Shown here: positions 1-21,193 of the stretch, piece after piece
How positions within the stretch are numbered: the stretch's first letter is position 1
How the letters are laid out: each line of letters begins with the position of its first letter
Source of the DNA: a virus
Lineage: Duplodnaviria > Heunggongvirae > Uroviricota > Caudoviricetes
IMG/VR virus record: IMGVR_UViG_2778261248_000001
Length of the DNA stretch: 47,453 nt
Reading direction: 5' to 3' (one strand)
Notes under the pieces: model-generated
What the model was told of the DNA's origin: nothing
Database searches by the model: none
What the model saw: only the letters and a program-made list of their open reading frames with translations
Translations under genes and position numbers: made by a program

Positions 1-90
1 TTGCCTCCCCCCCGTTGATGGGTAAAATAGCCGCAATTTTTCGTTTTCAACAAGCGCGGCGCGATGCCGCTTACTCAAGAAGAAAGAATT

Positions 91-165
91 ATGACGTTGT
101 CTCCTTATTTGCAAGAGGTGGCGAAGCGCCGCACTTTTGCCATTATTTCTCACCCCAATAATTAA
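91..165 (+). pseudogene. prfC: Truncated 5' fragment of peptide chain release factor 3 gene (host side of prophage junction)
   Basis: ATG at 91; translation [22 protein letters not shown] matches the RF3 N-terminus as I recall it, then diverges into NN-stop (163-165) before the GTP-binding P-loop; sequence to the right is phage-like. Confidence 0.6.
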
Positions 166-317
166 GCCCAAATTAAAGCTCTTTCACTCTTTCAAAATCC
201 TTTCAGTTAATTGAGGTCGAGCTATATAACTCATTTAAATACATTTTGTTATGTGACTTCTTTAATTGAAAATTCTTTCATGTAACTTTAAATCGATAAG
301 GTTGCTTTCATAAAAAA

Positions 318-378
318 TCTGTACATATGCTTGTACATAATGTACAAAGCAGCAGAGGTGTTTTGCGATTTGTACAAG
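318..378. promoter_or_regulatory. Operator-like TGTACA palindromes immediately upstream of int (putative regulated int promoter)
   Basis: ctGTACAt at 319-326, perfect 7-3-7 palindrome TTGTACATAATGTACAA at 331-347, self-complementary TTGTACAA at 369-376; same half-site family as palindromes at 7025-7039 and 7788-7806. Confidence 0.4.
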
Positions 379-385
379 GTGAGTA

Positions 386-1600
386 ATGGCGCTGTCTGAT
401 GCGTGGTTGCGTTCAGTCGTTGGAAAGGAACGTGATAAGGTTTTGGTTAAATCCGATCGCGATGGTCTGTCTGTCAGAGTATCACCGAAAGGTCGCGTAG
501 TGTTCCAATATCGTTATCAATGGGCAGGGAAAGGTGAGCGTCTTGATGTCGGAACTTACCCGGCAACTGGATTAAAAGAGGCCAGAGAAGAAGTTATCCG
601 TCTCCGTGGTGAACTCGAGTCAAACCGTAATCCACGATTGGTCAAGCAGGCTGAAAAACGAAAAGCTACTGAAGCCATGACGGTAGAGTCTGTGATCCGT
701 GCCTGGTATGAAGCATATTGTGTAAAAAATAAAAAAGGTTCTGAACAGATACTCCGCTCGTTTGAGCTGCACCTGTTCTCTAAAATCGGGAATATCCCTC
801 ACGATGCAGCTACATTGCATGATTGGTTAGAAATCCTGGAGCCTCTTAGCACTAAGACTCCAGCAATAGCAGACCGATTGCTAATTAACGCAAAGCAGGC
901 CCATGTCTGGGCGTATAAGAGAAAGCTCATTGAAACTCGCCCGCTGTCGGATATCACGGGTAAAGATCTGGATATCCGTAAAGGTCAGAAGAAACGGTTT
1001 CTGACACATGATGAAATTAAAATCCTTTATGCTGCGATCGATGGTTCTCGAATGGTTCCTAAATACCGGGCCTTCATTAAACTATTGCTACATTTTGGCT
1101 GCCGTAGTTCAGAGCTAATTACCGCTAGGGTGGACGATTTTGATTTCATTAATAAAGTATGGACTGTACCACCAGAACGACATAAGACTGGGGAGATAAC
1201 AGGCGAACCGCTAAAGCGGCCCATTATTGAACCGGTTGAAGAGCTTATAAAGTACGCTATTTCTATGAACAATGGTTCCGATATGCTTTTTACTAAGGAA
1301 GGAAGCAGGGAACCCGTTGGTCGGACATCATTGCAGTCGCTGCCTTACAATTTAATGCAGTATGCATGGCGGCGTTTGGGGTATCAATTCCCTCATTGGT
1401 CTCTTCATGATTTGAGGCGAACAGCACGAACAAACTTTTCTGATCTTACTGCGCCTCATATTGCAGAAATTATGCTAGGTCATAAACTGCCAGGGGTATG
1501 GCAAGTTTATGACAAGAGCGATTATCTAGAAGAACAGCGTAAAGCCTACCAAGCGTGGTGGGAGAGGGTTGAATCGATCGTTACTTGTACTGGTTCATAA
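386..1600 (+). CDS. int: Tyrosine integrase, P4/CP4-57-like family
   Basis: 404-aa ORF with SD-like aaggtgag upstream; N-terminal arm-binding-type region, C-terminal HDLRRTARTNF and VWQVYDKSDY recombinase-type motifs; sits next to host junction. Confidence 0.9.
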   Translation: MALSDAWLRSVVGKERDKVLVKSDRDGLSVRVSPKGRVVFQYRYQWAGKGERLDVGTYPATGLKEAREEVIRLRGELESNRNPRLVKQAEKRKATEAMTVESVIRAWYEAYCVKNKKGSEQILRSFELHLFSKIGNIPHDAATLHDWLEILEPLSTKTPAIADRLLINAKQAHVWAYKRKLIETRPLSDITGKDLDIRKGQKKRFLTHDEIKILYAAIDGSRMVPKYRAFIKLLLHFGCRSSELITARVDDFDFINKVWTVPPERHKTGEITGEPLKRPIIEPVEELIKYAISMNNGSDMLFTKEGSREPVGRTSLQSLPYNLMQYAWRRLGYQFPHWSLHDLRRTARTNFSDLTAPHIAEIMLGHKLPGVWQVYDKSDYLEEQRKAYQAWWERVESIVTCTGS

Positions 1601-1975: not shown

Positions 1976-2992
1976 TCACTTTTGTTTTAGCTTTATAATT
2001 TCTGATATCATAGTTGTTAGCTTTGAATCGGAAAGATTCTGCAGTCTATCTTTCTCAATAGAAACTGTACTTTGTCCCTTTTCTAATATGAAATTTCTTT
2101 CTGTTTTCATTAAAAGCATTGCCAACTCTTTTATCATGTCTTCGTTCTTGAATTCTTGAGCATATTTTAGAGACATGACTTTCATCTCAATATTTGTGAT
2201 TTCATTCTGAAAATATTTGATTTCGTCAAACCCATTTTTATAGAGGCGTAGAAAAAAATAAGCAAACAATTCAACGACTATTACAAATGATAATTTAGGA
2301 AGGTGATGAATAAAAAATCCCACCCCATCCACAATGTCTGGCGCGCTGTAAAGAAAGTAAGCAAGAGATAATATCCCTGTCAACGCAATTATTGTTCCGA
2401 TTGCAAGGTTAAGCCCACCTCGTCGATTGAGTCTGTCTATTTCAGACTCTAATCTTAGAACCATATCAGTATGGAGTTTATGTAAGCTGTAGCTCTTCTT
2501 AAAATCAGATATATCGCTTTTTAGGCTGTTATCTGCCAGAAGTATTGTGTTTCCAATTATTCTCTTTTTTGCATCGGATATTAACTTCTCCCTTTCACTC
2601 TCTGTTATTTCAATGGAAACTCCGGAAGATGTTCTATTTTCAATTTCGCTCAATTTTTTATTTAGCTTAACTATTTCTTTGTGAAAAATATATCTCGTGT
2701 TTTCAATATCTCTACCACCAATTCCTTTGTTTAAATAAGAAGTCATTATTGCGACAAAAGAACCAACAAAAACTAGGGCAGTTGCTGTAAATAAAATAAA
2801 CTCTTTCTTCTCGTTTATTAAATTTACTATTGATGATGATTCCAGTTGAATGTCTGAAAGCGAAGTTTTAAGCACAAAATTCATCACAGGTGAAACCATG
2901 ATTATGGCAACAACTATAATAAATCCATATTTTTTTATAATGTAAATAAGAAGACCAAATAAATCTTTCATTTTATCTTTTACCTGAAACAA
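1976..2992 (-). CDS. Orphan membrane protein with coiled-coil segments (about four predicted TM helices), function unknown
   Basis: 338-aa ORF in a visibly AT-rich island between int and xis; hydrophobic stretches near residues 11-40, 65-87, 195-216, 235-252 separated by Lys/Glu-rich heptad-like regions; no recognisable catalytic motif. Confidence 0.6.
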   Translation of the reverse strand: MFQVKDKMKDLFGLLIYIIKKYGFIIVVAIIMVSPVMNFVLKTSLSDIQLESSSIVNLINEKKEFILFTATALVFVGSFVAIMTSYLNKGIGGRDIENTRYIFHKEIVKLNKKLSEIENRTSSGVSIEITESEREKLISDAKKRIIGNTILLADNSLKSDISDFKKSYSLHKLHTDMVLRLESEIDRLNRRGGLNLAIGTIIALTGILSLAYFLYSAPDIVDGVGFFIHHLPKLSFVIVVELFAYFFLRLYKNGFDEIKYFQNEITNIEMKVMSLKYAQEFKNEDMIKELAMLLMKTERNFILEKGQSTVSIEKDRLQNLSDSKLTTMISEIIKLKQK

Positions 2993-3344
2993 ATTTTTAT
3001 TAAAGTAACTTAAAAAATGATTGATTGCAAGATTTACTATTGCTGTTCATTTTAAATTACTATACCCCCCTATGCATACATATAATCCCATAGGGGAGAA
3101 GTTTATTAGTTAGTTAAGTTGAAGGCTATACCTACAATCTAATTTCCCTCCAACCTAACATGCACAAGCGTCAACCTATCGGTAGTGATAATTTTATGAG
3201 GATACGTATAAACAAGATTCTGAGTTGCTCCTATTCATTAAGACAATACATTTTGTAACTTCTGCTTTTGGCTCAGGGTGGGGTGTGAGATTAGGTTTGG
3301 CTCTGTGCCATAGATGTGTCAGTTCACATCTGAGCTAATACACA

Positions 3345-3539
3345 TTACTCAATCACTCCAGCAAACCTATATATCTTGTGTGACGCCCATTTATTTGGGC
3401 ATGATTTAATATCAGGATCTGGAAAATCAGGCCTGTATTTCTGGCCAGTTCTCCGGTTTACGCTGTTCCAGCGAAGAACTGTCGATACTGAAACGCCACA
3501 GAAGTCGGCGACTTGTTTAGTTGTCATTAAGTCGTTCAT
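3345..3539 (-). CDS. xis: Excisionase / AlpA-type small HTH DNA-binding protein
   Basis: 64 aa, MNDLMTTKQVADFCGVSVSTVLRW helix-turn-helix signature; AGGAGG 7 nt upstream; start overlaps stop of upstream gene (TAATG); position next to int. Confidence 0.6.
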   Translation of the reverse strand: MNDLMTTKQVADFCGVSVSTVLRWNSVNRRTGQKYRPDFPDPDIKSCPNKWASHKIYRFAGVIE

Positions 3540-8657: not shown

Positions 8658-9490
8658 ACAGTTTAACGGCAAATAACCGTTTGTCGCAACAGCTGGTGGT
8701 CAGTGTCGCTGAACACCTGTTGTTACGGCATGAATGCAGATTACCAAATCACCTGGCTGTAAGTAACCACAGAGAACTTTACCTGACTGTGGGGGGCGAG
8801 TTGTGCGGGAACTTAACCGCTGGTTTCGTGACGGAAGAGGGCTTTATGTCCATGTTATTCGTTGGGAACCAGAAACACAGCGCGTTATCTATCTTCGCAA
8901 AGACTACCCGCATGAGTGCTTTAGTCCTTTGTGGAAATTCAGGCGTGATTTTGTTGAGTGTGAAGGACCACCAGCACATTGATTCTGCCATTCCGGGACG
9001 TTACACTGTTCAGGCACCTTATAAAGCGGGTGACGGGATTGGCGTCCTGGAAATGTTATCGGCGATATATGACGCGCCAGCGTCTTTTTTATCGTCTGCG
9101 TCTGTGCACACCCAAATTATGGTGGGCTGGACGGGGGCACCGAAAGGTGCGCCGGTTTCCGATAACGCCGGTTACGCCAACCCCGTTCAGTTCACCACCA
9201 GCGAAATTGGCGTTTCCGGTGGTGAAGGTAATTCACTGTTATCGGAGGCTGCCATCATGGCTACTGTCCCAGCCCTCACTCGTCTGAATGATGAAGACTT
9301 ACATAAACTCAGTTATGTAACAACTGCACTACGTGCTCTGCGCAAGGTAACTCTTTCGGATCCGCAGGCGCATCAGGTTTTGGTAGAAACCCTTCTTAAC
9401 TTGCAGGCTGAACGTATTCGTCTGGCGGATAAGGCTAATTTTCATATTCACCGTCTCCTGAATATCAGCGGAGGGCATCGTCATGCTTAA
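8654..9490 (+). CDS. Hypothetical phage early protein
   Basis: 278-aa ORF, ATGA start/stop overlap with upstream gene; alternative-frame ORFs in the same span look like out-of-frame artefacts. Confidence 0.45.
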   Translation: MNSLTANNRLSQQLVVSVAEHLLLRHECRLPNHLAVSNHRELYLTVGGELCGNLTAGFVTEEGFMSMLFVGNQKHSALSIFAKTTRMSALVLCGNSGVILLSVKDHQHIDSAIPGRYTVQAPYKAGDGIGVLEMLSAIYDAPASFLSSASVHTQIMVGWTGAPKGAPVSDNAGYANPVQFTTSEIGVSGGEGNSLLSEAAIMATVPALTRLNDEDLHKLSYVTTALRALRKVTLSDPQAHQVLVETLLNLQAERIRLADKANFHIHRLLNISGGHRHA

Positions 9491-17029: not shown

Positions 17030-17329
17030 AAAAATTCCTTAATACTGATAACTTGGCGCACTATACACACGTTCCTGAAGAAAGCTATAGTTTTTTGATG
17101 GGGTTGAAGATGGCTGGATGTCTAAAATAAACATTGCTTCATATGTTCAACTATGCGTTAATGATTGCGTCGGTTTGAAGAACAGACGATATACGAAGTA
17201 GTTTACTAAAGCAGTTCTCATTTCAGGTGTTATTCACTTATTCCTTCTTTGAGTCTCTCCAATTAAGTACGAAGTCGTTTCTGTTATACAAGCCATTTAT
17301 GCCGAAAGGCTCAAGTTAAGGAATGTAGA

Positions 17330-17545
17330 ATGTCAAATAAAATGACTGGTTTAGTAAAATGGTTTAACGCTGATAAAGGTTTTGGCTTTATTTCTCCTGT
17401 TGATGGTAGTAAAGATGTGTTTGTGCATTTTTCTGCGATTCAGAATGATAATTTTCGAACCTTATTTGAAGGTCAAAAGGTTACCTTCTCTGTAGAGAGT
17501 GGTGCTAAAGGTCCTGCAGCAGCAAATGTCATAATTACTGATTAA
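17330..17545 (+). CDS. cspB: Cold-shock protein CspB-like
   Basis: 71 aa, [38 protein letters not shown] (RNP1/RNP2 motifs); long AT-rich 5' leader. Confidence 0.85.
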
Positions 17546-17826
17546 AATTAATAGTTTGTCTGTATACGATAACGAAGAAGGCTGATGCCTGAGTGGAGAT
17601 ACAGACAGAGTGGTGAATATTGGATCTCTTTAATAAATAGTAAGGAGATCCAATACATGAAACAATGGCCAGCATATTTGGCAATAACTTAATCAGGAAA
17701 AGTATGCTAACCATTGTGGTGAAGTGCAGGTTTGCTGCATGAATAGTTTTACAGCAGAAGCTAACTGCTAGCATAGCAAAACAAAGTGCGTAAGTGGATG
17801 ACTCCCACAAAAAGCACCACAATATT

Positions 17827-20418: not shown

Positions 20419-20781
20419 ATTAATATTAAATCGGATTATTTTTAGCGCTGAATGTGAAATTTAAATAAAAAGGACTCTTCCATGAGTCAAAATCCTTGAA
20501 ATCTTAAGGGTAAGATAAAAGGTCATTAGACAGAATGACACGTTTTATTAATAAATAAAGCTATTGTTTCATTCGTGTGTTTTTCTTTACAAAAGTAATC
20601 CTTGCTATGGTTGGTTAATCATGCGTTAATGGTGTTCTGGTTTGTTACAAAATTATCTGAAGCAGTCATTGTTATAATTTTATTATTTGTACCTCTTGAG
20701 ATTTCCTTGTTGGTTTTTCTCTCTGATATTTTTTTTCGGACCATTCTGCCCAAGGGCTAACTTCTTCAAAAGGTAATAATG

Positions 20782-20994
20782 ATGTCTAACAAAATGACTG
20801 GTTTAGTGAAATGGTTTAACCCTGAAAAAGGTTTTGGTTTCATCACGCCGAAAGATGGTAGCAAAGATGTGTTTGTCCATTTCTCAGCTATTCAGAGCAA
20901 CGATTTCAAAACGTTAACTGAGAATCAGGAAGTCGAATTTGGTATTGAGAACGGACCTAAAGGCCCCGCGGCTGTTCATGTTGTGGCACTTTGA
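20782..20994 (+). CDS. cspI: Cold-shock protein CspI-like
   Basis: 70 aa, [45 protein letters not shown]; long AT-rich leader. Confidence 0.85.
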
Positions 20995-21193
20995 GGTAGA
21001 AAATATTACAAACCATATTCACTTTAGATGCCCGTGTTGCCATGGTTCTCAGTATAGAACATCATCTTTTGATGTTTCTGACAGGAATCCTTTCGGGGCA
21101 AAATGTATCTTTTGTAAATCAATGATGATTACATTTGATAATATTTCACAATACTTAAATGTTAGCCGTCTGTCGTTAGATTTAAGAAAGTGA
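20978..21193 (+). CDS. Small zinc-ribbon protein (CPCC ... CIFC), hypothetical; overlaps 3' end of cspI-like gene
   Basis: 71 aa from ATG 20978 (ORF track began at TTG 20939); Cys pattern resembles the 17909-18079 protein; no clear SD. Confidence 0.3.

Follow-up and report, generated by a model that had tools for sequence, protein, structure and literature searches.

Our analysis of a stretch of 47,453 nucleotides (hereafter, the window) indicates that, very probably, a lambdoid prophage has integrated site-specifically in the 5′ region of prfC, the gene for release factor 3 (RF3), and brings with it a surrogate start that rebuilds an intact RF3 open reading frame (ORF). The reading frame of prfC is rebuilt, not destroyed, and receives an altered N-terminus. 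In the mechanism that we favour, the lambdoid prophage, ~48.8 kb in length, was inserted near the start of the prfC coding sequence by a tyrosine recombinase, with the crossover in a 14-bp core whose codons, I-I-S-H-P, come just ahead of the RF3 P-loop. On the other arm, beside the core, attP carries a surrogate prfC 5′ end consisting of an initiation region similar to the native one, an ATG and 21 codons. Integration detaches the native promoter and the first 22 codons, leaving a 24-codon remnant that points into int, and at attR the surrogate start joins the rest of prfC in frame, yielding an RF3 changed at residues 3–8 and one residue shorter. The features of the window that bear on this scheme are collected in Table 1.

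Table 1. Features of the attachment region and of the recombination genes in the window.
Feature	Position	Strand	Basis
Host yjjG-prfC intergenic region	1..90	+	K-12 identity; yjjG end just before base 1 in A32
Native prfC promoter-like site, TTGCCT-16-TAAAAT	1-28	+	promoter scan, 12.6 bits, ~95th percentile of shuffles
Purine-rich native translation-initiation region	77-88	+	
Remnant ORF (24 codons): prfC codons 1-22 at 91-156, two phage Asn codons, TAA at 163-165	91..165	+	
attL copy of the 14-bp identity core ATTATTTCTCACCC (I-I-S-H-P)	142..155	+	sole stretch common to attB, attL, attR and attP
P′ arm of the phage attachment site	156..385	+	contiguous with the P arm in 2H10, cdtI and Ayreon
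Tyrosine integrase, 404 aa, DUF4102/Arm-DNA-bind_3 (IntSXT/P4-like) subgroup, prfC 5′-end specific	386..1600	+	Pfam; context of relatives
Excisionase, 64 aa, MerR/HTH_17-like	3345..3539	-	phrog_1553 'excisionase', E = 6e-36

At the left end, window bases 1–155 are identical, base for base, to the yjjG-prfC spacer and prfC codons 1–22 at the uninterrupted locus of Escherichia coli K-12 MG1655. The two sequences diverge at base 156 (C in the window, G in K-12), and from here on the sequence is that of the phage; this base, the last of codon 22 in the remnant, is phage-derived and synonymous. The whole window is 100% identical to the genomes of E. coli A32 and A22, and in A32 the end of yjjG directly abuts window base 1, with yjjG, rimI and holD immediately upstream. 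The identity to K-12 and the adjacent yjjG show this fragment to be the native start of prfC, which the PGAP annotation of A32 lists as a pseudogene ('incomplete, missing C-terminus'). An earlier note on this DNA had placed a prophage inside the prfC 5′ coding region, with 22 prfC codons running into two Asn codons and a stop, an attachment core within the N-terminal coding sequence upstream of the GTPase P-loop, and a P4-type integrase about 220 bp further on. The alignment and the translation of the remnant bear out this picture: the core encodes I-I-S-H-P, the integrase ORF starts 220 bp past the remnant stop, and 'P4-type' is right in the broad sense (Pfam Arm-DNA-bind_3, Phage_int_M and Phage_integrase). 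The native start is likewise present, but its ATG is at 91–93, one base later than the note had implied (90). An Rfam search of window 1–385 found no RNA family.

The right junction had been expected beyond the right edge of the window, as a repeat of the core followed by the rest of prfC, and this is where we found it. No second core copy or direct repeat was detected in the window, in a search that allowed up to 3 mismatches, because attR lies outside, ~1.5 kb past the window end; attR and the fusion were read beyond the window edge in the 100%-identical source genome A32. Alignment of attB, attL and attR places the attR core copy at 3336–3349 of the A32 locus L002, with host DNA on the left of the core in attL and on its right in attR. 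The core is the only stretch shared by K-12 attB, window attL and A32 attR, and lies directly before the DAGKT P-loop; judging from this alignment, the 14-bp core is the crossover region of the site-specific recombination.

On the phage side of attR, three minus-strand genes (ydfK-like, YnaM/YnfT-like and DinI-family) precede the right end of the A32 prophage, which then supplies to prfC a purine-rich RBS-like stretch, an ATG at L002 3288 and 21 codons, fused in frame at the core. The sequence here reads ...CAATTATGACAAGCCTTTTGGCCGCAGAGGTAGCGAAAAGAAGAACCTTTGCAATTATTTCTCACCC|GGACGCCGGTAAG..., and the surroundings of the start codon (AATTATGAC), together with the purine-rich stretch upstream, resemble the native ones. 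The A32 prfC is annotated as intact, with 528 aa, residues 3–8 changed and one residue fewer, and scores 1089.6 bits against the TIGR00503 prfC equivalog (cutoff 467). From residue 8 onward, the hybrid RF3 is identical to K-12 RF3 at 521 of 521 positions, and the 37 nucleotide differences between the host-derived part of A32 prfC and K-12 are all synonymous (0 non-synonymous). The target ORF is not interrupted in the integrated state, an intact hybrid ORF being present at attR in A32. Of the two outcomes that the earlier note had offered, a disrupted prfC or an N-terminally altered product, the altered N-terminus fits, and disruption does not, at the ORF level.

The phage attachment site itself includes the surrogate 5′ end. 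We reconstructed attP (530 nt) by joining the left part of attR to the right part of attL and searched for it in phage genomes. It is contiguous in full in Escherichia phage 2H10 (98.3% identity) and phage cdtI (96.0%), and phage Ayreon matches at 96.5% identity over 97% of the reconstruction, so that the surrogate start, the core and the P′ arm are found in one piece in free phages. In the alignment of these 3 phages, attP is conserved from ~215 bp left of the core through to int. The accessions are AB285204 (cdtI) and LR595862 (2H10).

Surrogate codons 8–21, aligned to host codons 9–22, show 8 nucleotide differences, all synonymous, namely, GTG/GTA, AAG/AAA, CGC/AGA twice, ACT/ACC and GCC/GCA. 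When 8 substitutions were placed at random, the peptide remained unchanged in 0 of 200,000 trials. This pattern indicates that the surrogate codons evolve under purifying selection at the protein level, and 8 synonymous differences out of 8 therefore imply that RF3 translation runs through these codons.

The base left of the core (equivalent to window position 141) is the host-type C (GCC ATT) in the attP of Ayreon (locus L084) and A (GCA ATT) in 2H10, cdtI and A32 attR; possibly, host sequence was exchanged in Ayreon during an earlier cycle of integration and excision. When viral contigs were scanned for diverse attP sequences, the matches were all E. coli prophage copies with 98–99% identity, many of them starting at int, and no new surrogate N-termini emerged.

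Both arms of attP contain repeats of the motif TGTACA, of which there are 8 within 418 bp, four to the left of the core and four to its right, where ~1 would be expected in 3.5 kb. In the P′ arm they occupy window positions 320–325, 332–337, 341–346 and 371–376. A 22-nt element, TGTACATATG(A/C)TTGTACATAAT, occurs once per arm, the window copy being TGTACATATGCTTGTACATAAT at 320–341. The TGTACA repeats are probably arm-type sites bound by the Arm-DNA-bind_3 domain of the integrase. Two such putative sites lie 16–37 bp upstream of the new prfC ATG.

How the hybrid gene would be expressed is less apparent from the phage sequence. The earlier note had suggested looking upstream of attR for a promoter and an in-frame start; the in-frame ATG is there, but neither of two scans produced an above-chance sigma-70 promoter match. 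Over the 219 bp that separate the phage-borne ATG from the divergent dinI-like gene, a consensus scan found no sigma-70 site on the plus strand, and the best weight-matrix score was 9.0 bits, compared to a shuffle median of 9.5 and to 12.6 for the native promoter. From the tail-fibre genes up to attR, every annotated phage gene in A32 lies on the opposite strand. At this right prophage end, two LexA-box-like palindromes (CTGT-N8-ACAG; A32 L002 3081–3133) overlap a promoter match, TTGACA-18-AAAAAT, for the minus-strand DinI-family gene, and this gene is divergent from the phage-borne prfC start, ~160–200 bp away. Overall, expression of a functional hybrid RF3 appears likely to us on the strength of the sequence.

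At the other end of the prophage, the strong native promoter-like site now points through the 24-codon remnant to int, and no terminator-like site was detected between this site (1–28) and int (386). The integrase could, then, be transcribed from the host prfC promoter in the lysogen. A more far-reaching reading, which we regard as doubtful, is that integration swaps regulatory inputs, so that RF3 would be expressed from a weak or unconventional promoter in the P arm, the strong native promoter would read into int, and the choice of target would track the DNA that precedes the P-loop. If so, lysogeny would alter RF3 dosage and provide constitutive, host-driven expression of the integrase.

Could the prophage instead inactivate prfC by insertion, with lysogens living without a dispensable RF3? 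Some 48.8 kb do indeed separate the gene from its native promoter, RBS and first 22 codons, and no convincing promoter was found upstream of the phage-borne start in the two scans. Furthermore, prfC has been listed among the genes 'disrupted' by phage integration (Bobay et al. 2013, PMC3603311), and for the lysogen of an Stx1 phage the expression of prfC was stated to be unknown and RF3 not to be essential (Ogura et al. 2007, PMC2323221). However, attR holds a complete, in-frame ORF, the host part of A32 prfC has diverged from K-12 by synonymous changes only, and it is difficult to see why 21 phage codons should preserve a 14-residue RF3 sequence through 8 synonymous changes if they were not translated as a piece of RF3. 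Besides, a promoter for prfC has been reported for the analogous SXT element (PMC8409611). Loss of prfC by insertion is thus improbable, and the term 'disrupted' (Bobay et al. 2013, PMC3603311) does not fit prfC in the module described here, at the ORF level.

Active lysogeny, in which prfC would be switched off while the prophage is integrated and restored by precise excision, is in our view very improbable: prfC is already reconstituted in the integrated state, and selection on the surrogate codons favours use of the hybrid gene, even though precise excision would regenerate native attB and prfC, and both an integrase and an excisionase are present. Least probable of all, to the point of being negligible, is that the prfC-like stretch at the window start is carried by the phage and that the true chromosomal junction lies elsewhere. 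A mimic of the prfC 5′ end does exist on the phage, but this real phage copy is located at the opposite end and differs (MTSLLAAE..., with 8 synonymous differences), whereas window 1–155 matches K-12 including the 90-bp spacer after yjjG, and yjjG, rimI and holD lie directly upstream in A32; on these grounds, a phage-carried copy at the window start was rejected. We thus favour site-specific integration with reconstitution of the RF3 ORF from the phage-borne start.

The recombination genes are in keeping with this reading. The integrase matches PF13356 (E = 3e-16), PF22022 (E = 3e-07) and PF00589 (E = 1e-17), and is identical to the integrase of phage cdtI at 396 of 404 positions (98%); the att-int region as a whole shares 98.3% DNA identity with phage 2H10. 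R240, R344, H366 and Y375 are invariant and H341 nearly invariant in an alignment of 16 sequences, and these five are likely to be the catalytic residues (R, H-x-x-R, H, Y). With its Arm-DNA-bind_3 (DUF4102) domain, a catalytic domain and conserved candidate catalytic residues, the protein falls into the IntSXT subgroup. This subgroup, defined by the DUF4102 arm-binding domain, includes the integrases of P4, Sf6 and SXT. The 64-aa excisionase, for which Pfam HTH_17/MerR matches are below threshold, is probably the directionality factor of this integrase.

The arrangement is already known: publications describe it for SXT from 1999 and for phages from 2007 onward. At prfC, it was reportedly described for SXT by Hochhut and Waldor in 1999. 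Among phages, an Stx1 phage was found in prfC of an O103 strain, which alters the N-terminus and removes the native RBS and promoter (Ogura et al. 2007, PMC2323221); phages carrying Stx1a or Stx2c are common at prfC in clonal complex 119 (PMC10132054); and the integrase of the cdt1 phage groups with IntSXT in an 'SXT cluster', all members of which insert at prfC (Smyshlyaev et al. 2021, PMC8138268). The lambdoid phages cdtI, 2H10, Ayreon, Stx1-O103 and those of CC119 all use the same target as the prophage studied here, and cdtI, 2H10 and Ayreon also have the same attP, with the surrogate prfC start and the TGTACA arm repeats. What differs is the cargo, given that the prophage has neither stx nor cdt genes in its annotation; otherwise, the module is the same. 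Indeed, the identity of the integrase, the junction at the shared core, the attP with its surrogate start and the in-frame prfC all place the prophage in the prfC-specific lambdoid module.

At the att site, the element works like the SXT/R391 integrative and conjugative elements, a likeness that is drawn from published descriptions. Unlike these conjugative elements, it is a tailed phage without annotated transfer genes, and a promoter for the hybrid prfC is not evident. Membership in SXT/R391 was rejected, considering that the element encodes lambdoid head, tail and lysis genes and, in its annotation, no transfer genes. The integrases and islands specific for dusA (Farrugia et al. 2015; IMEVchUSA3, PMC8409611) follow an analogous logic only, with another target gene and another integrase lineage.

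A related solution is found at icd, where phage 21 and e14 carry a diverged duplicate of the displaced gene end, so that the ORF stays intact. There, it is the 3′ end that is replaced, so that, unlike at prfC, no start codon or promoter is needed. Integration of phage 21 and e14 in icd is also mentioned in PMC3603311. At prfC, the phage uses a conserved housekeeping gene as a landing pad and leaves its reading frame unbroken, which corrects the classing of prfC as 'disrupted' in lysogens, be it in surveys or by automated means. Whether, and how strongly, the hybrid prfC is expressed matters for much of the species, since 699 of 5426 complete E. coli genomes (12.9%) have the attL/int junction and the same number have the phage-type junction at attR. 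The carriers include ExPEC UTI89, S88 and APEC O1, and also NU14 and F11; in the six full-junction genomes listed, the matched feature is named prfC in 6 of 6.

The family of integrases extends well beyond E. coli. A profile scan of one genome per species recovered 80 relatives, 17 of which (46–99% identity) lie 196–234 bp downstream of a prfC remnant ending ...FAIISHP, the frame of the remnant mostly stopping within 0–9 codons (loci L004–L016, L029, L044, L045 and L059). They come from Escherichia, Pantoea, Serratia, three Pseudomonas, Marinobacterium, Methylomonas, Methylibium, Variovorax, Halomonas, Microbulbifer and others. Given that prfC is cut at the same codon in all 17, specificity for its 5′ end is therefore old in this integrase clade, spanning gamma- and beta-proteobacteria. 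The junction DNA among the relatives reads ATYATYTCNCAYCC, followed by an AT-rich motif on the element side, often NAATAAT. The N-terminal stretch of RF3 varies in both sequence and length, as in MSNPFLEEVARRR (Pantoea), MTNQAAEVAKRR (Pseudomonas) and MSDLATEVRRRR (a Burkholderiaceae genome). Residues 3–8, which are replaced in the hybrid, fall within this naturally variable segment, whereas a 10-residue stretch is invariant in all of these genomes. In a Rhodoferax metagenome-assembled genome, an integrase fragment (residues 217–378 only; L078 2043–2528) lies ~1.9 kb upstream of an intact prfC (4425 onward) and probably represents a decayed member of this family that has remained at its target.

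Away from prfC, relatives at 45–51% identity (Xenorhabdus, Photorhabdus, Morganella and Acinetobacter) lack both a prfC remnant and a tRNA in their vicinity; scans around the relatives located away from prfC revealed no tRNA genes, and only two of these have an assigned target, lepA. These two (44–45% identity) lie 215–226 bp downstream of a truncated 5′ end of lepA (EF4) that stops at ...KNIRNFSIIAH, one in a Piscirickettsiaceae metagenome-assembled genome (L034 2700–3000) and the other in Acinetobacter johnsonii CIP 64.6 (L038 2700–3000). The lepA junction DNA is similar to that of prfC, namely, ATYATTGCNCAC, followed by aataat in L034, and the cut is at the paralogous position, in the strand before the P-loop of another translational GTPase. 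Comparison of the two sites suggests a target switch between the paralogous genes prfC and lepA; in the doubtful reading given above, target choice would follow the DNA for the conserved pre-P-loop strand of translational GTPases.

The prophage itself is lambdoid, with head, tail, lysis and Q/antitermination genes; its nearest relatives are Escherichia phages PhiR63_1 and 2H10, with which it shares much of its genome. Between int and xis, an AT-rich ORF of 338 aa (window 1976–2992, minus strand) matches phrog_5157 (function unknown); it has no Pfam match and a very weak PADLOC match to a 2TM effector (E = 0.007). Lying in the usual int-proximal slot, it is possibly a gene for cargo or defence. 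Rfam places an isrK Hfq-binding RNA and a C4 antisense RNA next to each other near the immunity region (window 9014–9202, plus strand). Finally, cspA thermoregulator leaders precede the cold-shock genes of the prophage at 17169–17608 and 20624–21040, both on the plus strand.
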